Shown here piece by piece: positions 1,095 to 31,354 of a DNA stretch of 34,570 bases. The translations under genes were made by a program, and so were the position numbers. Numbering within the stretch: the first letter of the stretch is position 1; the number at the start of each line of letters is the position of its first letter. The stretch is taken from NCBI GenBank assembly GCA_964556655.1, contig CAZKWY010000007.1:1-34570 (forward strand). The letters are read 5' to 3'. This DNA is from an uncultured Candidatus Saccharibacteria bacterium (GTDB lineage Bacteria > Patescibacteriota > Minisyncoccia > Portnoybacterales > UBA2143). A model generated the notes under the pieces. That model was not told where the DNA came from and searched no databases. It saw only the letters and a list, made by a program, of their open reading frames with translations.

Positions 1095-1286
1095 TCAAAT
1101 AATATAATCCTTAAACCATATATAACTCTTCTCATTCACTGTTTGAACCCAACTAACATACCCCCACCCCCAACAAGGGTACCCCCCTCCAATGAAACAA
1201 ATAATATCCAAAACCAGAGCATAAACACATAACATAAACCCGTGAATAAAACCAAAGAAAAAACCAGGAATAAAACCCCCGGACAA
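1095..1286 (-). CDS. hypothetical small hydrophobic protein
   Basis: 63 aa Gly/Phe-rich hydrophobic ORF encoded opposite a CA-rich low-complexity stretch. May be a composition artefact. Confidence 0.2.
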   Translation of the reverse strand: MSGGFIPGFFFGFIHGFMLCVYALVLDIICFIGGGYPCWGWGYVSWVQTVNEKSYIWFKDYII

Positions 1287-2254: not shown

Positions 2255-2343
2255 TGGATACCTTAACCCTATACGTAGTCCTAGTTCTCACACTCGGAAT
2301 ACTCATAATAACACACACCTTATTCAACAAGAAACAAAAATAA
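2254..2343 (+). CDS. putative 29-aa single-TM peptide
   Basis: ATG overlaps the upstream TAA (TAATG). Encodes MDTLTLYVVLVLTLGILIITHTLFNKKQK. Not in the ORF track because it is under 60 aa. Confidence 0.25.
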   Translation: MDTLTLYVVLVLTLGILIITHTLFNKKQK

Positions 2344-2344
2344 C

Positions 2345-2470
2345 GCCTATAACCCTAACCCCCTAAACCCTAATTAGAACCCCATAACCATAAACCATTA
2401 ACCCTTTTCTATACCTATAACCTATTTCTCATAAACCTAATTCTCTAACCCCAATAAACCTATAAGAGCC
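2345..2470. repeat. CA-rich telomere-like (CCCTAA-type) low-complexity tract
   Basis: Imperfect ccctaa/ccctaaacc repeats on the + strand. The complement has 4 or more G-runs. Confidence 0.5.
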
Positions 2471-2612
2471 GAAAAAATCAACCTTTCTTCCTCTCCCTGT
2501 GTTTGTTTTTGTTTGTGTGTGTATGTTGTATTTGTGTCTTTTTGTCAGGTTTGTGACATTTTTATTCGGTATTCTTATATATTAATTGTTTCATTATCTT
2601 ATTTGACTTAAG

Positions 2613-2855
2613 ATGAAAGCAAAAGAACTAGTCGAGTTCGTTGAACATGAATCCTCAAGGCGTTGGGCTAACAGTGATCTATGGAGTGAAACACAAGTAA
2701 TCCTAGAGCACATAGCCACCCACTTTCAAGAGGGTTGCCAGGAATGCAGAGAAGAATTCAATGCTATGAATTACCCGGACTATGCCCGTGTAATAGAGGA
2801 AATAGAGCGTGACCCGGATCTGCGGAACTGGGTATGTGAGAAATATCGTTACTAG
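2613..2855 (+). CDS. hypothetical protein
   Basis: 80 aa ORF with an ATG start, preceded by an AT-rich TATA-like sequence (ttatatatt near 2575). Confidence 0.4.
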   Translation: MKAKELVEFVEHESSRRWANSDLWSETQVILEHIATHFQEGCQECREEFNAMNYPDYARVIEEIERDPDLRNWVCEKYRY

Positions 2856-2879
2856 AAGCCTATCCTAGGCTCATTTATT

Positions 2880-3230
2880 TATTTTATTTTATTTTACCCC
2901 CATAGCCTAAACCTATTCCATTATTTTATTCTTACCCCATTATCCTATTCCTTCTTAACCTATTGGCCCATTAACCTACTCCTTCTTACCACCCCATCCT
3001 CTTAACCTACCACACCCACCCCCGTACCGAAAAAAATACACCGAAAAACTTAAAAAGGCAATATAACGGGGTTCTGTCTACGCGGGTTTTTTGGGGAGTG
3101 GGTTGTATGTTGTGAGTGTTGTGTGTTGTTGTGAGTGTTATGTGTTGTTGTGGGTTATGGGTTGTTGTTTGGGTTGTTTGTCCATCCCCATTCTTGTCTT
3201 ATTTGGTTTAGTATTCGCTGGGTTAGTTTA
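2880..3230. repeat. strand-asymmetric low-complexity tracts (CA-rich 2880-3030, then GT-rich 3060-3230)
   Basis: Repeated cctaacc/ccttcttacc-type units, followed by gtgttgttgtgagtgtt-type units. The GT-rich part overlaps the 3' end of the - strand gene 3155..3706. Confidence 0.4.
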
Positions 3231-3706
3231 TAGGTTTTGGTGGGGAGTCTTCTCATTAGTTCTTGGTTTAGTTTTTTGTATGCTCGTAGTTGTTCGGTGT
3301 CTTGGTTTATGTTGACGTTTATGTTTTCTGTTCTGGTTGGTCTTATTTTGTCTGCTATGTTTTTTGCGACGTCTATTCGGTATTTGGTTGCTGCTCTTTT
3401 GTTGGTGGGGTTGTCTGGTTTGGTGTGGTATAGTTCGTTGATCCATTTGTTTATAGTGGCTTCGTGTTCTGCTAGTTCTCTTTTGAGGAGTTTCTGGGTG
3501 TATTCACGTGTTACTATTTTGTCGAGTGTGGGGCGGCTTATCTGTAGGGCGTCGGCTATTTGTTGGTTGCTGAGGTGGGGGCTGCTTGTTATGAGTTCAG
3601 CGGCTTTGTTGGCGAGTGCTGTTCTTTTAGCGTCTGGTATACGGTATTTTTCTATGTTATCAGTTATTTTCTCTGTTGTTTCTATTTTTTTTGTTTGAGT
3701 GTTCAT
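3155..3706 (-). CDS. helix-turn-helix DNA-binding protein
   Basis: 183 aa ORF with an ATG start. HTH-like segment LSNQQIADALQISRPTLDKIV. The low-complexity C-terminus (NNPNNNP) comes from the CA-rich strand. Divergent from the terminase gene. Confidence 0.5.
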   Translation of the reverse strand: MNTQTKKIETTEKITDNIEKYRIPDAKRTALANKAAELITSSPHLSNQQIADALQISRPTLDKIVTREYTQKLLKRELAEHEATINKWINELYHTKPDNPTNKRAATKYRIDVAKNIADKIRPTRTENINVNINQDTEQLRAYKKLNQELMRRLPTKTYKLTQRILNQIRQEWGWTNNPNNNP

Positions 3707-3811
3707 TCTGTATGTGTATATGCATCCTTGTTTATAGGTTTACGTTTTTTTACGGTTCATGGGGGTTGATGTAAACATGTGACGGGTTTATGGGTTTATT
3801 AGTTTTATTAC

Positions 3812-3822
3812 TTATGCTATGT
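3812..3822 (+). promoter_or_regulatory. candidate archaeal TATA box upstream of the terminase gene
   Basis: tatataat lies about 20-28 nt upstream of the ATG at 3842, consistent with a leaderless or short-leader archaeal promoter. Confidence 0.3.
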
Positions 3823-3841
3823 ATATAATTGTGATATAGTT

Positions 3842-5428
3842 ATGGATATGGTTGTGGATATGGTTGATATGCGGGACACTGGTTTCACTTATAAGGGTGA
3901 GCCAGTTGATCCATGTGGTTCTTTATATGATTTCAGTAGATACTGTTTTAATCAACCTCATGAGAATAAACCGTTTCACGTGGATTGGTATGAGACTATC
4001 GCGGATCACAACATTAAGAGTGGTTTAATTATTGCTCCACGTAACAGTACTAAGAGTACTTGTTGGGGTAGAGTAGCGCCCCTATGGTTACTCGGCTGTA
4101 ACCCAGACTTACGTGTCGTTTTAGTTAGCCGTACCAGTAGCCTCGCTCAGGATAATCTACGTTTCATTCGTTTACAGGTTGAGAGTAATGACAAGGTACG
4201 GGAAGTGTTTCCCTATGAAGAGGTTAACGGACGAGTATTCGGGTTAAAAGCTAGTAGTCCATGGGGTACTGAGAAATTGACTATTATGAATAACCGTAAC
4301 GATGGAGTTCCCTCAGTGTACGCGGTTGGGTTAGAGGGAAGCATTTCAGGTATAAGAGCCGATTTGATAATAGTTGATGACTTAATTGACATTAATAACG
4401 TTATGACTGAGGGGCAACGTGAGAAAGTTAACGATTTCTGGGATAGCGTGATTTTACCTACGCTTAACCCTGATGGACGCATATTCCTTGTAGGGACACG
4501 GTATCACGCTAAGGATTTCTATAACCGTATGCTTGAAGACCCTATGTATAAGGATAACTCATTCATGTTCCCAGCGTTAACAAACGAGAAAGGGGAGACA
4601 TGGTATGATGAAGAAGACACACCGATTAGTTATTGGCCTGAACGGTGGCCTGTTGAGAGACTTATCTCTATGAAGGAACGTATGGGTAGTCTAGCTTTTA
4701 ACAGTCAATATCAATGTGATCCATCTGGGTACGCTGGAACCGTGTTTAACCCCGAGGATTTAATGTTTTATGACCCTGAACGTGACTTATTACCTATATG
4801 GGGTGACCTAGACTTCGTTATGAGTGTTGACCCTAACGTCACTGAGAACCCTGAATCAGATAACACCGCTATTGTGACCGCTGCGGTGGATAGGCGTCGT
4901 AGCCAGATATTCATTCTTGACATATACGCGAAGCCACTGGGTTTCACTAATCAAGTTAAGAAGATAACTGAGTATGGGCGTCGTCGACAGGTGTCGGTTG
5001 GTGATCTTCGGTTTGACTCTGAGATACGTATCAGTAAGATTGGGGTTGAGGCTGTCGCGTATCAGCGGAGTCTTCAGCAGACGGGTTATATGCTTGGTTT
5101 ACCTGTGGTTGAGGTGCAGCAGGGTAATAAGAATAAGGAAGTGCGTATAGTTGGTGTTCAACCGCATTTTGAGAACGGGCGACTGCGTTTACCTAATCCC
5201 GATAAAATTAGTCTCCCATGGTATGATGCCTTCTATAAAGAGTACGTGAGTTTCCCGAAGGGGCGGCGGGATGATATGCTTGACGCGGTTGAGATTCTTG
5301 TCGGTATGGTGAGTGATAGCTTCGCTGTTTCAGGTATACCATGGGGTCCTAGTGATGGGGGTGCGTTGAATATGAGTCGCAGTCGTTCAGGGCGTGGTTT
5401 AGGTTTCTCGGGGGGTTTCAGGGGCTAA
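3842..5428 (+). CDS. terL: terminase large subunit
   Basis: 528 aa. P-loop-like GLIIAPRNSTKST, Walker B-like DLIIVDDLID, C-terminal nuclease-like region. Typical position upstream of the portal gene. Unusual Gly/Ser/Arg-rich C-terminal tail. Confidence 0.9.
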   Translation: MDMVVDMVDMRDTGFTYKGEPVDPCGSLYDFSRYCFNQPHENKPFHVDWYETIADHNIKSGLIIAPRNSTKSTCWGRVAPLWLLGCNPDLRVVLVSRTSSLAQDNLRFIRLQVESNDKVREVFPYEEVNGRVFGLKASSPWGTEKLTIMNNRNDGVPSVYAVGLEGSISGIRADLIIVDDLIDINNVMTEGQREKVNDFWDSVILPTLNPDGRIFLVGTRYHAKDFYNRMLEDPMYKDNSFMFPALTNEKGETWYDEEDTPISYWPERWPVERLISMKERMGSLAFNSQYQCDPSGYAGTVFNPEDLMFYDPERDLLPIWGDLDFVMSVDPNVTENPESDNTAIVTAAVDRRRSQIFILDIYAKPLGFTNQVKKITEYGRRRQVSVGDLRFDSEIRISKIGVEAVAYQRSLQQTGYMLGLPVVEVQQGNKNKEVRIVGVQPHFENGRLRLPNPDKISLPWYDAFYKEYVSFPKGRRDDMLDAVEILVGMVSDSFAVSGIPWGPSDGGALNMSRSRSGRGLGFSGGFRG

Positions 5429-5442
5429 AATGAGGCGTTTAC

Positions 5443-5679
5443 GTGGTTTATAGTGATTTATTACCTGATTCATGGGGTTTGGTGGCGTATAAGCGTTACA
5501 GGCAGCTAAGGGATAGTACTATTAAGGAGATAAGGGAGAAGAAGAGAACGGGTGACGCGTGTTTATCTTGCCCCGGTTTCTGTGCGTGTTTCACTGAGGA
5601 CTATGTTTACACTTGGTGTCGCTTCAATAAATGTATAAGGCAGTATCCGCATATTAGGGATAGAGGAGAGTTCACTTAG
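5443..5679 (+). CDS. hypothetical Cys-rich small protein
   Basis: 78 aa ORF with a GTG start and no in-frame ATG. Contains CLSCPGFCAC...C...C. Confidence 0.2.
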   Translation: MVYSDLLPDSWGLVAYKRYRQLRDSTIKEIREKKRTGDACLSCPGFCACFTEDYVYTWCRFNKCIRQYPHIRDRGEFT

Positions 5680-5680
5680 G

Positions 5681-6133
5681 TTGACATGTAGTTTTATGCA
5701 TAAGCTTTGCCCCACAGCGGGGTGTGAGACAGTTGTCTGTAGAGCGTTTTTCCCTGATAAACAAACGATTTTAAGCGAAAAAGAGCAGGAAAAGTGTCGT
5801 AGCGGGGACTATAAAGAGGTTTGCAGCGTCTACGCGGAGGGTTTAAAGCATAGAGAGGAGAGACGGAGGAAGGAGTTGGATATGCGTTGCCCGTTCGCTA
5901 GTAACAAGGAGTGCGGGCACCCTGATCGTTGGCAGTGTAAGGGGGGTAACCCTGCGTTCAGATTATATCCATGTTATAGTGATGACGGGGAGCTACTAAA
6001 CACGTGGGAGAATATATTGGAGACTTGTCTAAGCGGGGATCGCAGTATCTACGTGGAGTGTCCACACTTCAAGACGGGGTTGGAGCAGTACGGTAAAACT
6101 GTTGAGGATGTATTTAACCCACGGAAACTATAA
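5681..6133 (+). CDS. hypothetical Cys/His-rich protein (putative metal-binding)
   Basis: 150 aa with 12 Cys. TTG start at 5681 is preceded by GAGGAGAG; an alternative ATG is at 5696. Lies between the terminase and portal genes. Confidence 0.35.
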   Translation: MTCSFMHKLCPTAGCETVVCRAFFPDKQTILSEKEQEKCRSGDYKEVCSVYAEGLKHREERRRKELDMRCPFASNKECGHPDRWQCKGGNPAFRLYPCYSDDGELLNTWENILETCLSGDRSIYVECPHFKTGLEQYGKTVEDVFNPRKL

Positions 6134-6168
6134 AGTATTGACTGTAAATGATTGAGAGGGTATAGAAT

Positions 6169-7698
6169 ATGAGTGAAGAAGAGGGTAAAGGGGAAACAGG
6201 AGGTATAAGTAGAAGCATTAGAAGCGGTATCCCGGGGCTAGGTGACAGCGGTGGGGTTGCTTCTGATAGCTACACTAGTCGTGAAAGCTTTAAAGCTTTT
6301 AATCAACGTGGAAGATATATTGGAGCATATGAGGGATACGGTGCTAAGATACGTGACACGGATCGTTTATTCTATAGTACACGTGAACCGGTTGGAGTGT
6401 GGTGGGTTAAACACATCGCGTATGATATCTTTGATAACGGTTTCCACGTGGTTAACCCTGATGATGTGGATGATAAAACACTGGATAGAGACGTTCAGAG
6501 ACTATTTCATCAGTTAAAAGCGAAGCAGGCGCTTATACGTAGCACGGTTTTTGAGCGAAGATACGGTACAAGCATACTTGTGCATAGCTACACGGGGTTC
6601 GGTGATAACGTCGATTGGGGGACGCCTTTATTCGAGTTAGAGCCAGACGGCTCGTTCCCAGATAACCTTAACGCGGGGGAGCTTCTTCAGGTAACACCTT
6701 ACCCGTGGACATCAGTTAACGTTGATGAACTTGATCTAGATGAGTCAAGCATACGCTATGGTTTACCTTTATACTATAAGATACATATAGGTTCAGCTTC
6801 AAGCGACACAGTTGTACCGAGCGGTGAACAAGCGGATAACACAGTTAAGGTTCACTGGACTAGAGTCACGTTAGATAATCCACGACTAGATGAACACCCC
6901 TATGAAGGCATACCAGCGATAGACGCTATATTCGATGACTTAGTTGGCGGACGTAACGCACGGTGGGGAGCGTATGAATCCTATTACCGCCACGGAACAG
7001 GTTTCCCCGTGATAAAGACAAGGGGTACTCCTGAGCAGAACCGTGAATGGATAGAGAACGGTGGACTCAACGACTACGTGAATGTACGTGGATACTTCGT
7101 GTGTCACATAGATGAAGAGTTCAGCTTCGAGGGAGCACAAGGAAGGGCGCTTAACCCTAACACCTACTTCGACATGTACTACACGTTCATAGCGGCAGCC
7201 ACGGGGGTAGCGAAGGATAGTATACAAGGAGTGAGCGCGGGGCGAGTAACTGGTAGCGAGGTGAATGAGCGTCAATACTATAAATCTATCTCCTTGCTTC
7301 AGAACCAGAAAGAACCAGTGATTAGGGAACTAGTGGATAGACTCATACAGACGGGGCAAATAGAATACGAGGGCGACTACGTGATTGACTGGGTTGACCC
7401 CTTCGAGGTTAACCCACAAGATAAAGCCGCTATAGAGTTCATGGAGACACGTACAAGAGCGTTGCAGACATGGAAAACGTTTAACGAGTTAAGAGCAGAG
7501 GAGGGCTTAGAACCCATAGAAGGGGGTGACGTGTTAATGAGTCTACCGGGGCAGATGGCGCCGGGGGGCAGTGAGCCTGCTCCTAACCAAGAGGAGCCGG
7601 CGGCAACTAGTTCTGAGCCGGAGGAAGGTAGTCCTAGTGAATCAACGTTACTTGATAAGGTTCTCGGTAAAGCCTTGGATGCCTTGGGTAAGGAGTGA
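6169..7698 (+). CDS. portal protein
   Basis: 509 aa ORF immediately downstream of the terminase region, with an acidic Pro/Glu-rich C-terminus. Called from size and gene order. Confidence 0.6.
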   Translation: MSEEEGKGETGGISRSIRSGIPGLGDSGGVASDSYTSRESFKAFNQRGRYIGAYEGYGAKIRDTDRLFYSTREPVGVWWVKHIAYDIFDNGFHVVNPDDVDDKTLDRDVQRLFHQLKAKQALIRSTVFERRYGTSILVHSYTGFGDNVDWGTPLFELEPDGSFPDNLNAGELLQVTPYPWTSVNVDELDLDESSIRYGLPLYYKIHIGSASSDTVVPSGEQADNTVKVHWTRVTLDNPRLDEHPYEGIPAIDAIFDDLVGGRNARWGAYESYYRHGTGFPVIKTRGTPEQNREWIENGGLNDYVNVRGYFVCHIDEEFSFEGAQGRALNPNTYFDMYYTFIAAATGVAKDSIQGVSAGRVTGSEVNERQYYKSISLLQNQKEPVIRELVDRLIQTGQIEYEGDYVIDWVDPFEVNPQDKAAIEFMETRTRALQTWKTFNELRAEEGLEPIEGGDVLMSLPGQMAPGGSEPAPNQEEPAATSSEPEEGSPSESTLLDKVLGKALDALGKE

Positions 7699-7702
7699 GA
7701 CT

Positions 7703-8593
7703 ATGGGTGATTCATTTTATACCCTTGTTTGCCCGTTATGTGACGGAGAACGTTTTATAACTGATTTATATAACTGTGAAGAGGTTTGCGTAAACTGTGG
7801 ATACGTGTTGAATAACCCATCGGATAAGAGAATACCTGTGCATCTACGAGGATACGAGAAAAACTATGGAGGCGAGGTACGTGAGAGTGTACATGATAAG
7901 GGGCTTAGCACAACGTTTAACGTTGGACGAGACGCCGCGGGGGCTTCACTGGATAAGGAAACCATGAACCTTGTTTACCGTATGAGGAAACATAACCGTC
8001 GTAGTAAGATAAATGACAGCGTTCAACGTAACCTCAGCATAAGCCTCAGCGAGCTTGACCGTATGATAGGGGTGTTAAAGCTACCTGAGTACGTGAAAGA
8101 GGAAGCTGCTCATATCTACCGCACGGCTTTACATATGGATATGATACGTGGGCGTAGTATAGATGACTTTGTAGCGGCAGCGGTTTATATGGCGTGCCGT
8201 AAACTACGGGTAGCACGCACCCTACGAAGCATAGTGGATGCGAGTAAGGGATGCTATGAGGATGTGTCCCGTACTTATCGTTTAATGCTACGTGAACTAG
8301 ATATACGTCTCCCCGTGGATACTCCGGGAAAGTTTGTGGCTGATATAGCTAGTTACCTTGGTTTACCTAGATGGGTTGAAAGGGAGGCTGTTGAGACGTT
8401 ATCTACGGCTCGTAGTCGTCGTTTAACGGTTGGTAAAGACCCTAAAGGGGTTGCTGCTAGTGCTTTGTATTATATTTGTGTAAAGAACGGGGTGGATGTT
8501 GTGCAACGTGATCTTAGTGAGGCTTGTGGAGTGTCTGAGATTACTATAAGGAATCGTTACCGTGACCTAGTTGACGGGTTAGGTGAGGACTAG
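7703..8593 (+). CDS. tfb: transcription factor B (TFB/TFIIB) homolog
   Basis: The ATG at 7703 directly follows the portal stop; the track ORF starts at an upstream GTG at 7571 inside the portal gene. N-terminal Zn ribbon CPLCDGERFITDLYNCEEVCVNCG. Two cyclin-like repeats: LPEYVKEEAAHIYRTAL...RGRSIDDFVAAAVYMACR and LPRWVEREAVETLSTARSRRLTVGKDPKGVAASALYYICV...ITIRNRYRDL. Confidence 0.85.
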   Translation: MGDSFYTLVCPLCDGERFITDLYNCEEVCVNCGYVLNNPSDKRIPVHLRGYEKNYGGEVRESVHDKGLSTTFNVGRDAAGASLDKETMNLVYRMRKHNRRSKINDSVQRNLSISLSELDRMIGVLKLPEYVKEEAAHIYRTALHMDMIRGRSIDDFVAAAVYMACRKLRVARTLRSIVDASKGCYEDVSRTYRLMLRELDIRLPVDTPGKFVADIASYLGLPRWVEREAVETLSTARSRRLTVGKDPKGVAASALYYICVKNGVDVVQRDLSEACGVSEITIRNRYRDLVDGLGED

Positions 8594-8620
8594 GAGAGGT
8601 GTGGGTTTAGTGTCTAGTCT

Positions 8621-8953
8621 ATGTTTATTAATCATTCTACGCTAACTAATATGAGGATACTTCACGTGTCAGATGCAGATTCAAGTATTAACTACCCGAC
8701 TGTAAACGAGTGTAAACTTATTCAGAGAAGCGTTGATAACCGTTTTTTATCCCTAGAACATGATATAATGGAGAATAAACGGGTTAACAGTAAACTATCT
8801 AAGATAATAATAGGGAACGGAGGGGTTGGACTCGTAGAGAAAGTGAATCTACTCTATCACCGTAACCAGTTGCTTTACCATTTTTTCGGGGTAATACAGT
8901 CAATAAGTGTTTCACTTATAATATTATACTTAACAGGAGTTTTAAAACTATGA
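8621..8953 (+). CDS. hypothetical protein
   Basis: 110 aa ORF with a hydrophobic C-terminus, between the TFB and protease genes. Confidence 0.3.
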   Translation: MFINHSTLTNMRILHVSDADSSINYPTVNECKLIQRSVDNRFLSLEHDIMENKRVNSKLSKIIIGNGGVGLVEKVNLLYHRNQLLYHFFGVIQSISVSLIILYLTGVLKL

Positions 8954-10326
8954 AGGATATGAAGGAAGGAAAAGATATGAAGATAATTTATCAGCAAGAC
9001 GAATACACGTTATCACCTGACAAGATAACAGAGTACACTCACCCCGTGTACGGGGAAGTCACCGTGTTCCATGACGTAGTGATAGCGTCAGAGATAGTTC
9101 AACAATACAGCGACGGATACGCTTATAAGCCAAGAGAAGAGTTACAGCAATACACGTGGACAGCCGACGGTAGATGGGTTACACTCCGTCAACACCCCCA
9201 AGAGGGAGTGATAAGCACCCGTGACCAAGTGTCAGGGCGCACTGTGAACCCCAGATACGTGAAGAACCTGAAAGACCATGAAACAGGGAGACCTAACAGA
9301 GCAGGCGTATTAGCTGACGTGGAGATATTTAACGAACGAACCACCCCTCAGGCGCTTAAAGACATGCGAGACGGTAAGAAACAGGATGTAAGCATAGGGT
9401 TCTTCTACACACATGACGCAACGAAGGGAGTAGTAAACGATGGACCGTTTAAGGGAAGAGAATACGATTACGTTCAACGAAACATGTTTCATGATCATCT
9501 TGCGGCTTGTATTGATAACGGTCGTTGCCCTATGCCTCTATGCGGGATTGGGGCTGACGAACTAGGGCGTAGGTTGACTGGTGATCCCTTCGCTGGGTTC
9601 GAGGGGTTTGATGGTTTCGTGGCTAAGATATTGGAGGAGAACAGTGATTTGAGTCGGGGGGACGCTGAGAAGATATGCGGTGAACTTAAATCAGAGCATG
9701 AGGATACATGTAGTGAGGACACATTGTTGAATGCTAAGGTACGTGAGTTAATAACGGTTCTCATGGATGAGTTGGAGGAAGTTAAAGGTATGAGAGACGC
9801 TGAACGGGAACATGAGTGGATTACGAGTATAGATTGGGGAGTTGAGCCTTTCACATCTATATACGGGAGACTAGCTGAGGATACTCGGTTGCAGATTAAG
9901 GAGCTTGGACTCTGCCCCACGTGTGAGGATTCTAAAGCAGTGGATATGTCGCTTGAAGAGATTAACTCTAAGATTAAGGAGCTACAAGATAGAAGAGACG
10001 AGTTACAGGAAAAAATAGATGAAATCTATGACGAAAACATGTCTAAAGAAGAGGAAGATCCTACTTCTGAGTTATGGGATGAGATAGAGAAACTTCGAGA
10101 TGAAATTGAGGTGCTTCTTCACGCTAAAGCTATTAAACTCGCGGAAGAGAAGTCTGAGGATAAATCAGATGAATCAGAGGAAACCGAGGATGAGTCTGAG
10201 GGAAAAGAGAAGTCTGATGAACCGTCTGAGGAATCTGAACCCGATGAGGATGTTAAGGATGAGGCGTCAGGGAAGAGGGTTGACGTGGATGCTTTGCTTG
10301 AGCGTGCTAATAGGGTTCTCGGATAA
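8950..10326 (+). CDS. prohead protease (HK97/S78-like) fused to an acidic coiled-coil scaffold-like domain
   Basis: 458 aa. N-terminal region with an HET...AGVLADVEI...DVSIGF pattern resembling the His/Ser motifs of HK97 gp4-type prohead proteases. C-terminal 150 aa is a strongly acidic coiled coil (KELQDRRDELQEKIDEIYDE..., ESEETEDESEG). Confidence 0.5.
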   Translation: MKDMKEGKDMKIIYQQDEYTLSPDKITEYTHPVYGEVTVFHDVVIASEIVQQYSDGYAYKPREELQQYTWTADGRWVTLRQHPQEGVISTRDQVSGRTVNPRYVKNLKDHETGRPNRAGVLADVEIFNERTTPQALKDMRDGKKQDVSIGFFYTHDATKGVVNDGPFKGREYDYVQRNMFHDHLAACIDNGRCPMPLCGIGADELGRRLTGDPFAGFEGFDGFVAKILEENSDLSRGDAEKICGELKSEHEDTCSEDTLLNAKVRELITVLMDELEEVKGMRDAEREHEWITSIDWGVEPFTSIYGRLAEDTRLQIKELGLCPTCEDSKAVDMSLEEINSKIKELQDRRDELQEKIDEIYDENMSKEEEDPTSELWDEIEKLRDEIEVLLHAKAIKLAEEKSEDKSDESEETEDESEGKEKSDEPSEESEPDEDVKDEASGKRVDVDALLERANRVLG

Positions 10327-10376
10327 CTTCTTCATTACCTAGTTTTTATTATAATTCACGTTAAACTAAGATTTTA

Positions 10377-10544
10377 TTAATCTTCTGAAACAGAAGAATA
10401 ATTTATTACATATCCCCACCTGTAGAAAGTCTGTTGTACATCTTCTAGTTTTTCTTGGAAATCCTTCACTTCATTTTTTGAGTTGAAAAAGAGTTCTATT
10501 GGGGGATTATCTTCTCTAGGTATATGTAACGTATAATTATACAT
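10377..10544 (-). CDS. hypothetical small protein (55 aa)
   Basis: Not in the track. ATG preceded by a perfect GGAGGTGA SD with 8-nt spacing. Last gene of the - strand cassette. Confidence 0.3.
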   Translation of the reverse strand: MYNYTLHIPREDNPPIELFFNSKNEVKDFQEKLEDVQQTFYRWGYVINYSSVSED

Positions 10545-10567
10545 TTATTCTTTCACCTCCATCATGT

Positions 10568-10789
10568 TCAGTCACTTATAAACCCAAATTCCTGTAAAGT
10601 TTCATATATATCATTCATCATAGCATAAGATGTTGTCGCTTGAAGTGAATCAGGGCAACCAAAACTTCTTAGCCATAGAAGCATTTTACCCAGAATAATT
10701 TCTTCAACCCCATTTAAGTCGTAGGATTCATCATAATAAGTTCTGCATAGTTCCATGAGTTCTTCGTTTGTTGCTTCCTCTCTTGGCAT
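10568..10789 (-). CDS. hypothetical small protein
   Basis: Track ORF 10568..10798 has a GTG start; the ATG is at 10789. Part of the - strand cassette. Confidence 0.35.
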   Translation of the reverse strand: MPREEATNEELMELCRTYYDESYDLNGVEEIILGKMLLWLRSFGCPDSLQATTSYAMMNDIYETLQEFGFISD

Positions 10790-10800
10790 TTTTTTCACCT

Positions 10801-10977
10801 TTTCAATTATTCGTCATATGGATTATACCAACCCATATCCTGTTTTATTCCCTCAAGAATCAACTTAATACAATCATGACATATCTCAGTTTTCTCGTTT
10901 CCTATCTGGTAAGTTTCTCGGTTTGCATGGTTTTTACCTATACAATATTTTCCAAGCATTATCATATCTATACTCAT
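10801..10977 (-). CDS. small Cys-containing (CxxC-like) protein, 58 aa
   Basis: Not in the track. Its ATG overlaps the stop of the upstream gene (TAATG). Contains C..H...CHDC. Confidence 0.3.
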
Positions 10978-11330
10978 TACTCTTCACCTGCATCACATTT
11001 CACGACCTGTCTTAGTCTGAAACCAATAACTTTTTCTCCATTCCACTGAACCATTATATCGTTTTTGTAATTTTCCTTAAGAATCTTTACACGCGCGTCT
11101 CTCTCTTGAAGATATTTACCTAGTTCTGATTCTGGTAGTAATTCTTCTATTGGTTTTGTATATCTATGTTTTTTGAGTTCTAATAACTCCTTTCGTTGCT
11201 CATCAGTTATACCAACATATCCAAATCGCCCATTATGTTTAATTAGACAAATTTGCCATAGTCCGCCGTTTGCAGTGTAATTCATATCCGAAAAAAGTTT
11301 GTATTCTTCTGGGTATGAAGTGTTACTCAA
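10977..11330 (-). CDS. hypothetical protein
   Basis: 117 aa ORF, tightly packed in the - strand operon. Confidence 0.4.
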   Translation of the reverse strand: MSNTSYPEEYKLFSDMNYTANGGLWQICLIKHNGRFGYVGITDEQRKELLELKKHRYTKPIEELLPESELGKYLQERDARVKILKENYKNDIMVQWNGEKVIGFRLRQVVKCDAGEE

Positions 11331-11661
11331 ATTGTTCTACCTCCGTTATTCTAGGATACCACTCAAACAACACCTTATCAGCGGTTATCCTATATCTTTG
11401 ATGTAACTCAAACGTGTGGTGTCCATAATAGGTTCTAGTGAAGTAATCAGCGTCCACTATGCTTGTTGGGTGTTCGATTGTAAACGTTACCTTTGTGTGT
11501 TCCCAAGGGAAGGATGCTTGTTCAACGTTAACAACGTATCCAACTACTTGGGTTTGCCCTAAATTACGTGTAACCCCCCAGAAGGGAAGAGAGAAAACAA
11601 CGAGAAACATAAAAATAAGCATGGTGTACATGCTCTTAATTATAATATCTAATTCATCCAT
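11323..11661 (-). CDS. membrane-anchored hypothetical protein
   Basis: 112 aa with an N-terminal hydrophobic helix (MLIFMFLVVFSLPFWGV) followed by a soluble domain. Confidence 0.4.
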   Translation of the reverse strand: MDELDIIIKSMYTMLIFMFLVVFSLPFWGVTRNLGQTQVVGYVVNVEQASFPWEHTKVTFTIEHPTSIVDADYFTRTYYGHHTFELHQRYRITADKVLFEWYPRITEVEQFE

Positions 11662-11861
11662 TATTCATCATCCTCTGTCAGTGTTTGCATAGAAACATCA
11701 TAGATTCGTATCTCCAAATCTTTTCTAAAGTTCCAGTAATCAACCTCCAACTCTAACCCAGTGTGGTTTATTATTCTAACATTCTCAAAATCAACTTTAC
11801 CTTCTCCTTTAACCCAAAAATTGTTGTTGATCGTGAACGTGGGGTGTAGCTTCTCTCTCAT
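11661..11861 (-). CDS. hypothetical small protein
   Basis: 66 aa. Its stop overlaps the start of the downstream gene. Confidence 0.35.
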   Translation of the reverse strand: MREKLHPTFTINNNFWVKGEGKVDFENVRIINHTGLELEVDYWNFRKDLEIRIYDVSMQTLTEDDE

Positions 11862-11929
11862 TTTATCATCTCTCTCAAAGTATCATTGATGGATATACTA
11901 TATAACAGTTTCTATAAAATGAAACCATG

Positions 11930-12208
11930 CTACGCTAAATGCTCAGCTATAATATACTTCACATCATTCACAGACAACCCGTAACGTTCAGCGATAAACT
12001 CGTAATCATCAAACTTATACCAATCCGCAACCACTCTCTCCTCAACATCATCATCACGTTGAAGCCAACGCATCTTAGAAGCATGATCAACTAGGAAAAG
12101 CTTGCTACATGCCATGCATTTAACGAAGTCCTTACCGTCTATGGTTACGATAATATAGTTAACTCCTCCACACGCTGGGCATTTAAATGATTCACTCATA
12201 GGACTCAA
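11930..12208 (-). CDS. Zn-ribbon plus HTH-like small regulator
   Basis: 92 aa. FKCPACGG...CMAC Zn-ribbon and C-terminal YEFIAERYGLSVNDVKYIIAEH helix-turn-helix-like segment. First gene of the - strand cassette, facing a divergent promoter region. Confidence 0.45.
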   Translation of the reverse strand: MSPMSESFKCPACGGVNYIIVTIDGKDFVKCMACSKLFLVDHASKMRWLQRDDDVEERVVADWYKFDDYEFIAERYGLSVNDVKYIIAEHLA

Positions 12209-12400
12209 AACATAATACGGGTATAAGTATAAAAACTATTTGCATAAAAACCCCGTGTTTACCCTTATAAATAACCAAGTTAATAAACTAGTGAAACCCG
12301 TGGGGGTATAAACCTTCAGGAGTCATCCTGACTAATATCATGTTCACTCAAGACAACTTGAGGGTGACTAATTTTATAGAGTTGAAGAGAGGACAGTAAC

Positions 12401-12829
12401 ATGTCTAAAGAAGAGAAAAATAATAAGGAAAATAAAGAAGAAAAAGGTAAAGACGAGAAACCTGAAACAATAGACGTTAACATGGCTCTCGTATTAGCCC
12501 AACTAGAGGAAGCACTAGACACAGTAGAGAAACTAGAAACCGAGCGAGATGAACTTAAGGAAGAAAACTATAAACTAAGGGAAAGAATAAACCAGGATAG
12601 CAAGAAAACAGTGATAAACGACATAGCACAGAAAACCACTCTCAGCAAGAAAATCTTAGCGGAGATGGATTTAAAGGAACTATTAAAGTACAAGAAAATC
12701 CTAGACACAGCAAAGACATCTAGCTTCAAATCAGCGACACCCCTAAAACTAGGGAAAGACGACCCGAGGGCAAAAGTAGAGTCTATGCACGATGATTACA
12801 TGCGTAAACTTAAAGGAGGACACAAGTAA
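12401..12829 (+). CDS. coiled-coil Lys/Glu-rich protein (scaffold-like)
   Basis: 142 aa highly charged alpha-helical sequence. ATG start preceded by GAGAGG. Position just upstream of the decoration and capsid genes. Confidence 0.45.
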   Translation: MSKEEKNNKENKEEKGKDEKPETIDVNMALVLAQLEEALDTVEKLETERDELKEENYKLRERINQDSKKTVINDIAQKTTLSKKILAEMDLKELLKYKKILDTAKTSSFKSATPLKLGKDDPRAKVESMHDDYMRKLKGGHK

Positions 12830-13311
12830 TGACAACTTACCCAGTTAAACCAACTACACTAATACTAGCAGGCGGACAACCCCTAGAAATGGAGTGGAAA
12901 GCCGCAACAGCAAGCGCAATACTACCCGGAGACCTCGTGCAATTCAATAACGCTCCAACTGATTGTACCATTAAAGAAGCGGCAGCGGATAGCACAGAAG
13001 TAATCGGCGTAGCAGCGATAAGCCCCGTACCAGGTGCAACCCCCCCACGTGGAGGGGATAGAACCACAGCCTTCGAGGCGGGAGACCAAGTGAAGACTAT
13101 ACGTGGCCCAATCACAGCTATGCTACGTATAGCGTCTAGCCAGGAGATTCAGTGCGGTGAGTTCGTGCAGCCAGCGGCTTCAGGTGAAGTGAAGGCGTAT
13201 ATATGTGGGACTGATAATGATTGTCAGCGTATCGCGCAGGCTCTTGAAACAACTTCAGTGGATACTACGAGTTTCCAGTGGGGAATATTTGCCTTGGAGA
13301 GGCTAAGTTAA
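12829..13311 (+). CDS. putative head decoration-like structural protein
   Basis: 160 aa Ala/Gly/Thr-rich ORF. TAATG overlap with the upstream gene and AAGGAGGA SD. Position immediately before the major capsid protein. Resembles phage decoration proteins in composition and length only. Confidence 0.35.
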   Translation: MTTYPVKPTTLILAGGQPLEMEWKAATASAILPGDLVQFNNAPTDCTIKEAAADSTEVIGVAAISPVPGATPPRGGDRTTAFEAGDQVKTIRGPITAMLRIASSQEIQCGEFVQPAASGEVKAYICGTDNDCQRIAQALETTSVDTTSFQWGIFALERLS

Positions 13312-13318
13312 GAGGTAG

Positions 13319-14212
13319 ATGAATATGAGAAGAGATCCATTTGCAGCAGACGTTGGAATACTAACAGAGGAAGAGCAGTCATACATTGAGACACGGGTGG
13401 TTGAAACCTATAGAGCACAGCTTAGAGCGCGTCAACTGTTTAACCTATTAAATATAGGTGACGATGGCGGCGAGAAGCTTTACAGGTTCTACACTGAAAC
13501 CGATCCTAGTGAAGCGATGATTGATATGCATGGAGTAGGGGCGAGCAATGATCTTCCTGAAAAGACAGCGAACGACATTGATCTACCTGTCATACATAAA
13601 GAGTTCTTCATACCTTGGCGTGACTTAGCGGCAAGTAGAAACGAGGGGCCGAGTCTTCTTGATGATAGTATAAGAACTTGCACTAGGAAAATAGCGGAGG
13701 CAGAGGATAAACTACTTATCACAGGTCAATACACTGGCTGGGATGCTCTCGAGTTAGAGGGCTTCTTCACAGCGACGGGTAGAACCGATAACGCTTCTGC
13801 TGGTGTATGGCCGGATAACGCTTATGAGGATATTAACACTGCTCGGGGTGCTTTGCAGGATTCAGGGTTTGACGACGTTGAACCTGTTCTTGTTGCGCCC
13901 CCTGCGTTAATTACTTCATTAGATGACTTGATTGCTAACACAGGTATTACTTATAAGCAGTCGTTTATGAGTAATGGTTTGCTTAGTGATATTATTCCAT
14001 CTAGTAACGCTTACGCGGCTGACGGGAATCAGGATAGCGCTGTGTTAGTTGTACCCGGTGGCGGGAACTTCTACGCGGTTGAGGCTTTACCTATTATGAC
14101 TAGGTTGTTTGAGGATAGGATGGGGAATGTTCACGGAACTGTTCGTGAGGTTGTTGCCCCTATTATAGCTAGACCAACTGCTATTGCTGAGATTAACACT
14201 ATTACGACTTAG
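13319..14212 (+). CDS. major capsid protein, HK97/encapsulin-like fold
   Basis: 297 aa. N-terminal LTEEEQSYIETRVVETYRAQLRARQLF and C-terminal GNFYAVEALPIMTRLFEDRMGNVHGTVREVVAPIIARP match the conserved pattern of encapsulin-type HK97-fold capsid proteins. AGAGGT SD. Confidence 0.8.
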   Translation: MNMRRDPFAADVGILTEEEQSYIETRVVETYRAQLRARQLFNLLNIGDDGGEKLYRFYTETDPSEAMIDMHGVGASNDLPEKTANDIDLPVIHKEFFIPWRDLAASRNEGPSLLDDSIRTCTRKIAEAEDKLLITGQYTGWDALELEGFFTATGRTDNASAGVWPDNAYEDINTARGALQDSGFDDVEPVLVAPPALITSLDDLIANTGITYKQSFMSNGLLSDIIPSSNAYAADGNQDSAVLVVPGGGNFYAVEALPIMTRLFEDRMGNVHGTVREVVAPIIARPTAIAEINTITT

Positions 14213-14223
14213 TAATCTTATCT

Positions 14224-14234
14224 ACTTTTTTTTA
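14224..14234 (+). terminator. oligo-T tract downstream of the capsid gene (archaeal-type terminator candidate)
   Basis: T8 run (cttttttttatc) about 12 nt after the MCP stop codon. Confidence 0.3.
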
Positions 14235-14284
14235 TCTATGTTTTTAACTAGTGACGGGTATATGTTATTGTATGGTGAATATGT

Positions 14285-14680
14285 TTGAGTTATAGTCTTA
14301 AAGAGTTAGCGAAGGGAAGCGGGTTTAAGTCATCGGTTACTGTTAACGAGTCAATGGATTCTCATACGGTTCTCTACGTGGATAGTAATGGTTGCTGGGT
14401 GAAGGCGGATGCTAGTGATGCTTCTAAGATGCCGTGTAGTGGTATATCATGTGAAGATATATCATCAGGGTTGAAGGGAACAATACTTGTGACTGGGTTG
14501 ATTCATAGTAATAACTGGAACTGGACTCCTGGGGGGTTACTCTATGTTTCAACTACTAGTGGGGATATGACTCAGACAGCACCTGATGCGCAGGGTAATC
14601 GTGTTCAAATAGTTGGGAGAGCGTTATCAACGACGCTGATATTATTTAACCCTGACTTCTACATGACAACGGTTTCCTAA
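14285..14680 (+). CDS. hypothetical structural protein
   Basis: 131 aa. TTG start at 14285 with upstream GGTGA; no early ATG. Gly/Thr-rich and beta-rich in appearance. Directly follows the capsid gene. Confidence 0.35.
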   Translation: MSYSLKELAKGSGFKSSVTVNESMDSHTVLYVDSNGCWVKADASDASKMPCSGISCEDISSGLKGTILVTGLIHSNNWNWTPGGLLYVSTTSGDMTQTAPDAQGNRVQIVGRALSTTLILFNPDFYMTTVS

Positions 14681-14768: not shown

Positions 14769-15341
14769 ATGAAGATGAAACCTGAAGGAAACTATGAGAT
14801 GCGGTTCATATGCGATGAAAACGGTAAACTATTGAAAGGTGCACCCGGTAACTATACGTGCGGGGAAACCTATATGATGCCTCTTCGTCACAGTGAATAC
14901 CCGTACTGGGAGCTATTAGGGGAACCCCCCGTGTTAGAGATACCGCCTCCAAGCGAGGATGATGACGTGTTTAGCGGTGTATCACCTTTACCTGATATAG
15001 AGGTAGAGCAAGATGATTCAGATAGAGAAAACGTTGAGGACTTTGACGCGGAGAACGTTGACGCTGACGCCCCCGCCGTGCTTGAGCCTTATGCAAGTAT
15101 TAAGAATGGGAAAGTTGTTGCTTATCAAGAGGAGACACGTATACCAGAGGTGTCGGATAGTAACGAAGCTGAGGAAGAGGAAACCGATGAGGAACTTGAT
15201 GAGTTTCCTAGTGACGAGGAGTGGAGTAGGGATGAGTTGAAACGTATCCTAGATGAAGAGGGAGTAGAGTACAGTAAATACGCTCATACACCTACTTTAA
15301 AGGAGAAGGTTGAGGAACTTGGCTCTGAAGAAGAGTCTTAA
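14769..15341 (+). CDS. hypothetical acidic protein
   Basis: 190 aa with an ATG start. C-terminal two thirds extremely acidic (EDDDVFSG..., EAEEEETDEELDEFPSDEEWS). Confidence 0.4.
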   Translation: MKMKPEGNYEMRFICDENGKLLKGAPGNYTCGETYMMPLRHSEYPYWELLGEPPVLEIPPPSEDDDVFSGVSPLPDIEVEQDDSDRENVEDFDAENVDADAPAVLEPYASIKNGKVVAYQEETRIPEVSDSNEAEEEETDEELDEFPSDEEWSRDELKRILDEEGVEYSKYAHTPTLKEKVEELGSEEES

Positions 15342-17981: not shown

Positions 17982-18004
17982 ACAAGGTAAAGGATTGAGG
18001 AAGG

Positions 18005-18505: not shown

Positions 18506-18506
18506 G

Positions 18507-31168: not shown

Positions 31169-31354
31169 CCCCCCTCTCTTTTGTTTCGTAACGTTTATAA
31201 CATATTCACCATTTACTAGTATCGTGGATTAATGGTATTGTAGCGCATCTAATCGAGTGTGGTTAAATACGATCCAATCCCCGTAACTACATAAAACGGG
31301 GTATCCACTCTTATCAACAATAACCTTTTATAATAGACTAACACCTAGTTAAGT

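Follow-up and report, generated by a model that had tools for sequence, protein, structure and literature searches.

We identified a full-length homolog of transcription factor B (TFB/TFIIB), 296 residues long, at positions 7703..8593 of the forward strand of the window, i.e., of the whole stretch of 34,570 nucleotides analyzed here. The gene lies in the head-gene string of a tailed virus and belongs to a viral lineage in which, at the level of sequence, the B-reader has lost its conservation while the rest of the protein has kept a degree of conservation close to that of cellular TFBs. Virus-encoded TFBs are already known, so the present case is less a surprise than an interesting extension of that group: what is new is a TFB with a degenerate B-reader that is fixed in the same slot across a virus clade.

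The preliminary description had proposed a full-length TFB from a few motifs, all of which are in place: C10-P-L-C13, C29-V-N-C32-G33, R149-G-R-S152 followed by A-A-A-V-Y162-M-A-C165-R166, and G244-K-D-P-K-G-V-A-A-S-A-L-Y256. Profile and structure searches bear out this identification. The Pfam TFIIB repeat (PF00382) matches two stretches of the protein (E=3.7e-35, 120 bits for a cutoff of 23.6), and the NCBIfam profile PRK00423, 'transcription initiation factor IIB', aligns with residues 8-293 over its positions 14-306 of 312 (E=1.4e-79). The score against the latter (NF001658 / PRK00423), 267.4 bits, is under the curated cutoff of 384, and the one against Pfam Zn_Ribbon_TF is also under its cutoff (16.3 bits for 29). 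Hence, the ribbon is divergent and so is the whole TFB, which does not qualify as an equivalog of the housekeeping factor. The core of the Pyrococcus TFB (PDB 1D3U/1AIS) is matched over residues 103-293 with an E-value of about 1e-43. The AlphaFold2 model has a mean pLDDT of 79, which reaches about 90 in the core, and its top match in a Foldseek search against the PDB is 1D3U_B.

The ATG at 7703 is included in a longer open reading frame (7571-8593), and the evidence supports it as the translation start, as had been suggested initially, rather than the GTG at 7571. A Shine-Dalgarno-like AAGGAG (7690..7695, forward strand) is found 7 nt before this ATG, where it overlaps the end of the portal gene, and GGAG or GGTGA sites likewise precede other internal genes of the window. 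The alternative in-frame starts (ATG 7679, GTG 7637, and GTG 7571), all within the portal gene and without such a site, are less probable. The length of 296 residues was likewise obtained when genes were called independently on the source contig. The same protein (P0001) is present on a contig of 59,160 bp and on four short contigs, and the nucleotide sequence of its gene is identical across five samples.

The surroundings of the gene are those of a capsid morphogenesis module, and the position assigned to it in the preliminary description, between portal and protease, stands. The portal gene (6169..7698, forward strand; 509 residues; Pfam Phage_portal_3, E=1.1e-15) ends with the TGA at 7696-7698, 4 nt before the TFB gene. 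Downstream, we found a small conserved open reading frame of 110 residues with a hydrophobic C-terminus (8621..8953, forward strand), whose homologs also follow TFB in related loci, and then a DUF2213 / head maturation protease-like gene with an acidic C-terminal tail (8950..10326, forward strand; Pfam DUF2213, E=5e-7; PHROGs 530, 3778, and 2229, 'head maturation protease'). The portal and TFB genes are part of a tightly packed, co-directional string led by the large terminase gene (3842..5428, forward strand; Terminase_6C) and two small open reading frames (5443-6133). The HK97-fold major capsid protein (MCP) is encoded at 13319..14212 of the same strand (phrog_264 'major head protein', E=8e-13), and its gene on the contig also matches Linocin_M18. 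The presence of terminase, portal, protease, and HK97-type MCP in a single module is characteristic of head-tail (Caudoviricetes-type) viruses.

The rest of the contig of about 59 kb encodes an MCM helicase, a RadA-like protein, methylases, and many small open reading frames, and we saw neither integrase nor housekeeping genes on it. A Pfam scan of the open reading frames of the window revealed no TBP or TFE homolog. The location of a regulator gene within a structural operon is unusual, which counts against the role that we favor below. A MuF/ejection protein was considered for the slot after the portal, but this candidate is weakened, as the sole MuF-like signal, a weak one, comes from another part of the window (19154-19621). 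A megablast of positions 3800-14300 of the window against INPHARED phages gave no match, and the portal had a single distant one by tblastn, in the halovirus Humcor1 (24%). Hence, the virus is absent from INPHARED. A scan of IMG/VR by TFB peptide patterns retrieved no relatives.

Conserved modules and the degenerate B-reader

We recovered full-length viral TFB sequences from 17 of the 28 loci described in the next section and compared them with cellular TFBs. The Zn ribbon (residues 10-33, CPLC...CVNCG; 7730..7801, forward strand), the module predicted to bind the dock of the RNA polymerase (RNAP), has four cysteines in the window (C10, C13, C29, and C32), and the pattern C..C(10-25)C..C is found in 17/17 viral TFBs. 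The ribbon, for which AlphaFold2 predicts strands at residues 18-21 and 26-29, is 61% identical within viral copies and 56% within the cellular sister group. The motif of the B-linker strand region (residues 64-80, HDKGLSTTF...; 7892..7942, forward strand) is conserved in 16 of the 17 viral TFBs, and D65, G67, and T70 of H64-D-K-G-L-S-T70 are invariant in an alignment of 93 sequences (A3).

The two cyclin repeats are supported by Pfam and by alignment with 1D3U. The first one (RNLSISLSELD ... IRGRSIDDFVAAAVYMACR ...; 8027..8302, forward strand) includes a Pfam TFIIB repeat at residues 117-197 and has a pLDDT of about 90. The second one (8324..8581, forward strand), for which conserved residues give further support, contains the helix-turn-helix that recognizes the BRE. 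Its recognition helix, S278-R287 (SEITIRNRYR; 8534-8563, forward strand), is at the sequence level nearly the same as the cellular TEVT[IL]RNRY[KR], with E279, T281, R283, N284, and R285 invariant in the alignment of 93 sequences and a [TVI][LIV]RNR pattern in all viral (17/17) and database (123/123) TFBs. Taken together, the Zn ribbon, the B-linker, and the cyclin repeats have comparable conservation in viral TFBs and in their cellular sisters.

The B-reader is the TFB segment that extends to the polymerase active site, and it normally aids promoter opening and start-site placement. Its contacts with the template strand fall at about -4 to -8 (PMC13502027). In the window, this segment is degenerate (residues 37-63, NNPSDKRIPVHLRGYEKNYGGEVRESV; 7811..7891, forward strand): it has neither the helix motif D.GPEWRAF nor the loop R.R.G of cellular TFBs, it has 27 residues vs 33 in cellular TFBs, and the pLDDT is <50 at residues 38-45 and 48-57. 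A helix motif of the PEWRAF type, exact or with one substitution, is present in 123/123 database TFBs and in 0/17 viral ones. Similarly, GPE[WYF]R is found in 112 of the 123 database sequences, the remaining 11 being one-residue variants, and in none of the viral copies. The identity of the B-reader falls to 28% within viral copies, vs 53% within their cellular sisters, and its length varies between 26 and 41 residues, the one in the window being among the shortest (two relatives have 26). Most viral TFBs have in common an RRHG.G loop motif at the site of the cellular R.R.G; the TFB of the window, the most divergent of the viral copies, has no RRHG loop motif. Hence, the intact B-reader architecture assumed in the preliminary description does not hold, as neither this protein nor any of its viral relatives has the helix motif.

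Related loci, origin, and host

The slot occupied by TFB in the window is also occupied by TFB in related viruses, which adds up to 28 loci, 27 of them from other metagenomes, with portals 57-77% identical. By tblastn, TFB is found directly after the portal in 26 related loci, whereas L013 and L018 have TFB N-termini cut off by contig ends. In a neighbor-joining (NJ) tree of the portal, the TFB-bearing loci form one clade, and loci without the gene fall outside of it (L052, L030, L034, L010, L011, and proviruses of Bathyarchaeia metagenome-assembled genomes, MAGs). A single portal clade with TFB whose closest outgroups lack it indicates a single capture, a conclusion that leans mainly on this tree, on an insertion site that does not vary, and on the affinity of the sequences in HMM comparisons. 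In two of the TFB-less outgroups (L030 and L052), the sole open reading frame between portal and protease is a homolog of the one at 8621..8953. This family represents the ancestral content of the gap.

The pairwise identities of TFB and portal are correlated (r=0.57, 136 pairs), and TFB evolves faster (mean identity of 55% vs 71% for the portal). In one NJ tree, the 17 viral TFBs are grouped together, with Bathyarchaeia TFBs as their sister group, and the TFB of the window scores higher with the HMM built from its viral relatives (356 bits) than with that built from the cellular sisters (332.5 bits). A distance bootstrap of 50 replicates united the other viral TFBs in 39 of them but had the window sequence inside this clade in only 19, i.e., monophyly including the TFB of the window has weak support. 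A Kimura-distance NJ tree of the full data had no clade uniting all viral TFBs. It is conceivable that a second host TFB replaced the gene in the lineage of the window. The dN/dS values of 0.08-0.18 across six pairs, i.e., about 0.1, are those of a gene maintained under purifying selection.

Two independent lines point to the host. The cellular TFBs closest to the one of the window, and the sister group of the viral ones, are from Bathyarchaeia (44-48% identity), and 15 of the 16 genome contigs with portal relatives belong to Bathyarchaeia MAGs. This agrees with the initial suggestion of an archaeal host and narrows it, since the virus probably infects Bathyarchaeia. These are among the most abundant archaea of sediments, and the description of their virome has only just begun. 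The TFB gene provides a practical host marker that ties this uncultured virus clade to them. The accessible parts of the main text and supplements of Duan et al., on viruses of Bathyarchaeia, make no mention of TFB or TFIIB, although a homolog of TBP, encoded on a different contig, appears in these supplements.

Promoters and possible roles of the viral TFB

The genes that lead operons in the window have ordinary TATA-like boxes, such as the TATATAA about 20-30 nt before the terminase gene. Candidate viral promoters lie at about 3820-3845, 12370-12400, 14250-14285, and 31320-31355. The 90 nt before the viral TFB gene lack a TATA-like box. Around the predicted start sites, we found no virus-specific element: the only recurrent motif is GTGACGGGTWTATG, which has just two exact copies, one upstream of terL and the other upstream of the gene that follows the MCP, too few for a regulon. 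Related loci have a conserved TTATA..GGTTTAC upstream of terL, in a divergent intergenic region, that looks like an ordinary TATA box and may serve the HTH gene of the minus strand. The preliminary description had suggested that the virus redirects the host RNAP to its own promoters. The ordinary boxes and the near-cellular BRE helix do not favor this idea: since the helix that reads the BRE is unchanged, redirection by means of a different BRE is unsupported, and any specificity would more likely arise after recruitment than at promoter recognition.

To our knowledge, archaeal viruses encode no RNAP, and the initiation machinery of their hosts is eukaryote-like. In this setting, we lean towards a TFB paralog owned by the virus, which would derive from a single Bathyarchaeia-type capture and work as an alternative initiation factor with altered open-complex and start-site behavior. 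The ancestor of the tailed-virus clade would have captured TFB once from a Bathyarchaeia-type host, with insertion between the portal gene and the gene of a small membrane protein, and vertical inheritance since then. The gene would be co-transcribed, and is probably translationally coupled, with the portal gene in the head-gene string. Given the unchanged BRE-reading helix, we propose that the cyclin repeats bind the host TBP on TATA/BRE promoters; the Zn ribbon would dock the host RNAP, and the conserved B-linker would assist DNA opening. The viral TFB may thereby assemble pre-initiation complexes in the manner of a TFB2-type variant, a behavior that is expected because the B-reader has lost its helix motif and is free to vary in sequence and length. 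Open-complex formation and start-site selection would differ from those of cellular TFBs and would probably be weaker or depend on TFE. The virus would likely benefit from a private supply of initiation factor, with which RNAP recruitment on its own DNA is kept up, or biased, in the phase of assembly.

A TFB without the helix motif could also be inactive as an initiator. If its docking surfaces were kept and its B-reader non-functional, it might be a dominant-negative decoy that ties up promoters, RNAP, or both in dead-end complexes and silences host transcription at a late stage of infection. We regard this as unlikely, although several facts speak for it: the helix motif is lost in 17/17 viral copies, whose Zn ribbon and core match cellular TFBs in their degree of conservation, point mutations in the B-reader of a cellular TFB impair promoter opening and activity (PMC13502027), and global RNAP inhibitors, such as RIP and TFS4, are known from archaeal viruses and hosts (PMC7289017). 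However, with an unchanged BRE-reading helix such a decoy would block the viral TATA/BRE promoters as well. Furthermore, the B-linker, which is required only after recruitment, is conserved in all but one viral copy, the RRHG.G loop of most copies suggests a modified function rather than a pure loss, and the TFB2 of Pyrococcus furiosus is active in spite of its divergent B-reader (PMC13502027).

We give somewhat less credit to a virus-specific factor that discriminates after recruitment, in a takeover similar to that by sigma factors, where the remodelled B-reader would change the initiator or start-site preference or the needs of the open complex, and RNAP loaded by the viral TFB would initiate productively chiefly at viral promoters. 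The region touching the template strand is indeed the sole systematic difference from cellular TFBs, and purifying selection has kept the gene across a deep viral clade. Yet, a B-reader this variable resembles one under relaxed constraint, not one with a new specificity, and the start sites have no virus-specific element to match. A counterpart of the takeover sigma factors that is loaded on TATA/BRE promoters in the ordinary way seems to us just as doubtful; its B-reader would favor viral DNA by altering opening or start, or by escaping an inhibitor of the RNAP cleft, which, speculatively, might come from the host or from a rival virus. It is even more speculative that the viral TFB could be packaged with the genome and prime the first round of transcription, an idea that comes from the fixed position beside the portal and the apparent translational coupling.

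The same position and coupling would suit a role outside of transcription, be it binding of viral DNA at the portal in packaging, a protein carried inside the virion and delivered along with the genome, or Orc6-like replication, and Pfam ORC6_2nd gives a weak, sub-threshold match (E=6.8e-5). We find this improbable, as the cysteines of the Zn ribbon, the DKGLST of the B-linker, and the RNRY of the BRE helix are all conserved, and an ORC6 match under the cutoff is expected from the common ancestry of cyclin folds. Finally, the identity with cellular Bathyarchaeia TFBs could evoke a passenger, i.e., a functionless recent capture, a host gene flanking a provirus, or a mis-assembled contig, but this is most improbable given the filled slot in 27 loci of other metagenomes with diverged portals, the low dN/dS, and the identical sequence in five samples, and a host-gene or provirus-flank origin is rejected by synteny (virus structural genes on both sides) and by a contig devoid of housekeeping genes.

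This lineage is a natural experiment, with 28 diverged loci, apparently one capture, and a B-reader freed from constraint. The elements predicted to dock RNAP, bind TBP and the BRE, and open DNA are kept while the B-reader varies, which makes the lineage relevant to the role of the B-reader and to the ways in which initiation may be tuned or subverted through it.

Comparison with known systems

Cellular TFBs, such as the Pyrococcus TFB1 (1D3U/1AIS) and those of Bathyarchaeia (P0003, P0005, and P0008), have the same domain order as the TFB of the window, with a Zn ribbon, a linker, and two cyclin repeats. They share with it the DKGLST B-linker, the RGRS motif, and the RNRY BRE-recognition helix, and the Pyrococcus core is 43-44% identical to it. 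In contrast with them, the TFB of the window lacks the D.GPEWRAF helix motif, has a degenerate loop, and is encoded within the head-gene string of a virus.

Virus-encoded TFBs are less rare than had been assumed in the preliminary description. Homologs have been reported in rudiviruses (SSRV1, ARV2/3, and MRV1), in the Sulfolobales viruses YNP1/2, in the tailed Halorubrum virus HRTV-DL1 (ORF43), in the Asgard WyrdV1 and mobile genetic elements (MGEs), and in thaumarchaeal ICEs. Recruitment of the host RNAP has been proposed for TFIIB-fold proteins of viruses and MGEs, and the literature cited on them describes no functional test of a virus-encoded TFB. The TFB of the window matches phrog_20431 over positions 7-286 of its 293 (E=2.4e-43), but it is only about 24-27% identical to the other viral and MGE TFBs. 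The matches to rudiviral TFBs are restricted to the C-terminal 52-66% of the protein, i.e., to the core domain. The TFB of YNP2 has no Zn-ribbon cysteines and keeps DPGPEWRTF, whereas that of HRTV-DL1 keeps DRGAEWR and adjoins replication genes (PCNA and primase) instead of a head module. None of these TFBs has been reported as a clade-wide gene with a fixed position and a selectively degenerate B-reader.

Among cellular paralogs, the TFB3 of Sulfolobus is, like the viral TFB, non-canonical, but it lacks most of the core domain, whereas the viral TFB is full length. This truncated, damage-inducible protein acts in trans and modulates transcription without being a substitute for TFB1 (PMC7289017). 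The best functional analogy for the viral TFB seems to be the TFB2 of Pyrococcus furiosus, which by its description also combines an intact Zn ribbon and core with a non-conserved B-reader. Unlike the viral TFB, TFB2 is a stress-type paralog from a cellular genome, and its B-linker is divergent too, whereas that of the viral TFB is conserved. It is active, with a lower efficiency and a defect in promoter opening that is partially rescued by TFE-alpha or by pre-melted templates (PMC13502027).

The TFB gene and its product

The open reading frame at 7571-8593 (+) contains an ATG at 7703 from which a 296-aa product is read. The preliminary description had placed a TFB/TFIIB homolog with this start in the capsid module, and we recovered the ORF and all the motifs it quoted: CPLC (residues 10-13), CVNCG (29-33), RGRS (149-152) followed by AAAVYMACR, and GKDPKGVAASALY (244-256). 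The support from profiles and structures is unambiguous. Searches against TFIIB/TFB families identified two TFIIB cyclin repeats (Pfam, E=3.7e-35) and a full-length alignment to PRK00423, "transcription initiation factor IIB" (NCBIfam, E=1.4e-79), and the Pyrococcus TFB core structures 1D3U/1AIS matched at E ~1e-43. An AlphaFold2 model built from an alignment of 93 sequences reached a pLDDT of ~90 over both cyclin repeats, and its top Foldseek match in the PDB was 1D3U_B (TBP/TFB/BRE-TATA complex), with TFIIB chains from Pol II pre-initiation complexes next in rank. It is precisely in the B-reader segment (residues 38-57) that model confidence drops below 50. The protein is a divergent rather than an ordinary TFB, because its Zn_Ribbon_TF (16.3 bits for a Pfam cutoff of 29) and NCBIfam scores (267 bits for a curated cutoff of 384) both fall short.

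The start at 7703 is upheld by an SD-like AAGGAG (7690-7695, +) 7 nt upstream, which overlaps the codons just before the portal stop (7696-7698), and by a separate gene call on the source contig that gave the identical 296-aa product. Comparable GGAG/GGTGA sites precede other internal genes of the window. In most related loci, the TFB ORF opens with a conserved MSQ(L/P)FLTEPL peptide (e.g., L007:1208, L012:1794, L014:2072, L019:11430). Its codons overlap those for the portal's conserved ESTLLD terminus in a different frame. The peptide may truly extend the N-terminus or may merely reflect the conservation of the portal. The equivalent position in the window is the GTG at 7637, and the SD-preceded downstream ATG is used instead.

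Ordinary TATA-like boxes lie 25-50 nt upstream of the start codons of operon-leading genes, e.g., on the plus (2613, 3842, 12401, 14285, 25942, 31355) and minus strands (3706, 12199). The TFB gene itself has no such box. It follows the portal gene after just 4 nt and has the SD site, which makes joint transcription and translational coupling with that gene probable. The 14-mer GTGACGGGTWTATG occurs in exactly two copies, upstream of terL (3779-3792) and before the gene that follows the MCP gene (14251-14264), with a third copy at two mismatches at 1233-1246 (-). At up to three mismatches it has 13 matches for 4.95 expected, a number reached in 0 of 100 shuffles, and could act as a common promoter or operator.

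Viral genome and probable host

The large terminase (3842-5428) and the portal (6169-7698, Phage_portal_3) lie upstream of the TFB gene, with two small ORFs between them. Downstream are a 110-aa ORF, a DUF2213 protein (8950-10326; head maturation protease in PHROGs) and, beyond a minus-strand cassette of seven genes, the HK97-type major capsid protein (13319-14212). The cassette of small genes (10377-12208, -) splits the head module, with the protease on one side and orf142, orf160 and the MCP gene on the other. One of its products is a Zn-ribbon protein (11930-12208) with weak Lar/Elf1-like matches. Positions 12200-12400 are a divergent, TATA-rich intergenic region.

Other features of the window can be noted. 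Just upstream of the terminase module, 2255-3240 has two long non-coding stretches whose strands are strikingly asymmetric, with repeats rich in C/A (AACCCTA, CCTATAACC, TTATTTTATTTTA) preceding G/T-rich ones (TGTTGTGAGTGTT, three copies). Cumulative GC skew is lowest near 3000, and the region is a candidate for an origin of replication or a packaging site. Near the window ends, two short C5-cytosine-methylase-like paralogs (235-843, -; 33807-34433, +; 62% identical) match the Pfam profile in its N-terminal part only, and their genes form inverted repeats that are 73-75% complementary. Weaker signals include an Arc/RHH-like repressor C-terminus (14769-15341; phrog_1539, E=3e-5) and sub-threshold matches to a Mu-F-like minor head protein (19154-19621; E=4.5e-5) and to an Spt4/RpoE2 zinc finger (1697-2254; E=0.008).

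A 59,160-bp contig (SRR7048225) and four short ones from sister samples encode the identical TFB protein, and the gene does not differ between them by a single nucleotide. Beyond the window, the source contig (SRR7048225_56066) encodes an MCM helicase, a RadA/Rad51-like recombinase, methylases, a STIV_B116-like protein, a glycosyltransferase and many small ORFs; we saw no integrase or housekeeping genes in this part. It resembles the free genome of a tailed virus, roughly 59 kb long. The MCM, recombinase and STIV_B116-like genes, together with a second N6/N4 methylase, were recorded in this outer part (L074:12559-14601, 17501-18541; L076:14165-14503).

Two independent lines point to a member of the Bathyarchaeia as the probable host. 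The cellular TFBs nearest to the window protein (44-48% identity) are from Bathyarchaeia/Bathyarchaeota, as is the sister group in the neighbor-joining (NJ) tree. A portal-alignment scan of 185,579 species-representative genomes found 16 contigs, 15 of them in Bathyarchaeia MAGs; some are 104-545 kb long, which points to integrated proviruses.

Acquisition and evolution of the viral TFB

The best non-self match of the TFB (database protein P0002, 46% identity) is on a metagenome contig of 3.9 kb that shares the gene order (portal, TFB, small ORF, DUF2213 protein), where the portal is 65% and the protease 60% identical to those of the window. Portal-alignment scans gave 44 loci from metagenomes and 2 from IMG/VR. 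A TFB homolog lies directly 3' of the portal in 26 of these loci (tblastn with the window proteins), the portals being 57-77% identical and the TFBs 40-60% identical across the aligned stretch. The seeming exceptions L013 and L018 have TFB N-termini truncated at the contig end. The region between portal and protease lacks a TFB in L030 and L052 (portals ~59% identical), where it contains only the small hydrophobic ORF, in L034, L010 and L011 (40-48%), and in the proviruses of Bathyarchaeia MAGs (30-39%). In an NJ tree of 37 portals, every TFB-bearing locus falls in one clade, with L052 and L030 branching just below. As the nearest branches lack the gene, the parsimonious reading is that a host TFB was inserted once, separating the portal gene from the small ORF. 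In three relatives, the TerL gene is interrupted by ~0.5-1 kb insertions (L019:7372-8333, L052:870-1342, L053:1314-2371) at TerL residue ~219 (L019, L052) or ~287 (L053). Both flanking halves can be aligned to the window TerL, which is uninterrupted, and the insertions could be inteins, introns or homing-endonuclease insertions.

The 17 portal-adjacent TFBs used in our alignments, including the window copy, form a single clade relative to 124 database TFBs in a BLOSUM-distance NJ tree. Bootstrap support is moderate when the window copy is left out (39/50) and weak when it is included (19/50), and a clade of all viral TFBs was absent from the Kimura-distance NJ tree of the full data. An HMM of the other viral TFBs fits the window protein better than one of the cellular sisters, by 23.5 bits. 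The window TFB is therefore a long branch, and a later replacement of the gene in its lineage is possible. Pairwise TFB and portal identities are correlated (r=0.57, 136 non-independent pairs), and the mean identity is lower for TFB (55%) than for portals (71%), i.e., TFB evolves faster.

The B-reader and the role of viral TFBs

We aligned viral and cellular TFBs and computed identity per region. Viral TFBs are close to the cellular sister group in the Zn ribbon (61% vs 56%), the B-linker to core (50% vs 62%), and cyclin repeats 1 (64% vs 67%) and 2 (59% vs 66%). The only region that stands out is the B-reader (28% vs 53%), whose length varies between 26 and 41 aa in viral TFBs and is fixed at 33 aa among the cellular sisters listed. 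Of 123 database TFBs, 112 carry the archaeal signature of the B-reader helix, GPE[WYF]R, and the other 11 have single-residue variants (e.g., TPEWRAF, GPERRSF); none of the 17 viral TFBs has the signature. A modified loop motif, RRHG.G, persists in most of the latter; the window TFB has KNYGGE instead, in a 27-aa segment that is among the shortest. All 17 retain the four Zn-ribbon cysteines, RGRS and the BRE-recognition helix (T/S)E(V/I)T(L/I)RNRY, and 16 a DKGLST-type B-linker.

In TFB, it is the second cyclin repeat that recognises the BRE and sets promoter orientation, and the Zn ribbon docks RNAP (PMC7289017; PMC13502027). Point mutations in the B-reader impair promoter opening and activity, and TFB2, a Pyrococcus furiosus paralog whose B-reader and B-linker diverge, is partly rescued by TFE-alpha or pre-melted DNA (PMC13502027). 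From the conservation pattern, we infer that the viral TFB would still assemble TBP-TFB-DNA complexes on canonical promoters and recruit host RNAP, with the initiation step altered in the manner of TFB2. RNAP recruitment is a strong inference from homology, and the initial interpretation is partly supported. The proposed redirection of host RNAP to different promoter sequences is disfavoured at the level of BRE recognition, because the BRE-reading helix is unchanged; any selectivity would have to come after recruitment.

We lean towards the viral TFB being an active alternative initiation factor. Retained recruitment with an altered B-reader would also suit a dominant-negative decoy that shuts off the host, which we consider rather unlikely, and a "sigma-like" specificity factor acting after recruitment is somewhat less likely still. 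A role outside transcription, or delivery in the virion, is improbable for a protein with conserved RNAP-docking and BRE-reading elements. The TFB gene is real and viral, and it is both conserved and under purifying selection, with dN/dS values of 0.08-0.18 across six pairs (dS close to saturation). A functionless passenger is effectively excluded.

Viral TFBs as such are not new and will not surprise specialists. Homologs are on record in rudiviruses, in the Asgard virus WyrdV1 and several Asgard MGEs, and in thaumarchaeal integrative-conjugative elements, as well as in the Sulfolobales viruses YNP1/2 and in HRTV-DL1 (GenBank annotation; PMC10544981). PHROGs groups such proteins in phrog_20431, labelled "unknown function", and the window TFB matches this family at E=2.4e-43. 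The recorded proteins are all just ~24-27% identical to the window TFB, and matches to rudiviral TFBs span the core domain only. In the tailed halovirus HRTV-DL1, the gene adjoins PCNA and primase genes, not the head module. The loss of the B-reader motif is specific to the present viral clade: the TFB of HRTV-DL1 still has DRGAEWR and that of YNP2 DPGPEWRTF. The published Bathyarchaeia-virus paper (Duan et al.) makes no mention of TFB. Its supplement annotates a TATA-binding protein homolog on contig PLYI01000078 (gene 10), and other Bathyarchaeia viruses may carry this partner general factor; Pfam found no TBP among the window ORFs scanned. Three findings are new: a deep clade of tailed viruses, probably of Bathyarchaeia, carries a full-length TFB close to the cellular ones; the gene is inserted at a fixed place between portal and protease, which can be traced to one node of the portal tree; and the B-reader has selectively decayed. 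This clade-wide motif loss, with the rest of the protein retained, offers a testable handle on initiation mechanics and on the viral control of archaeal transcription.
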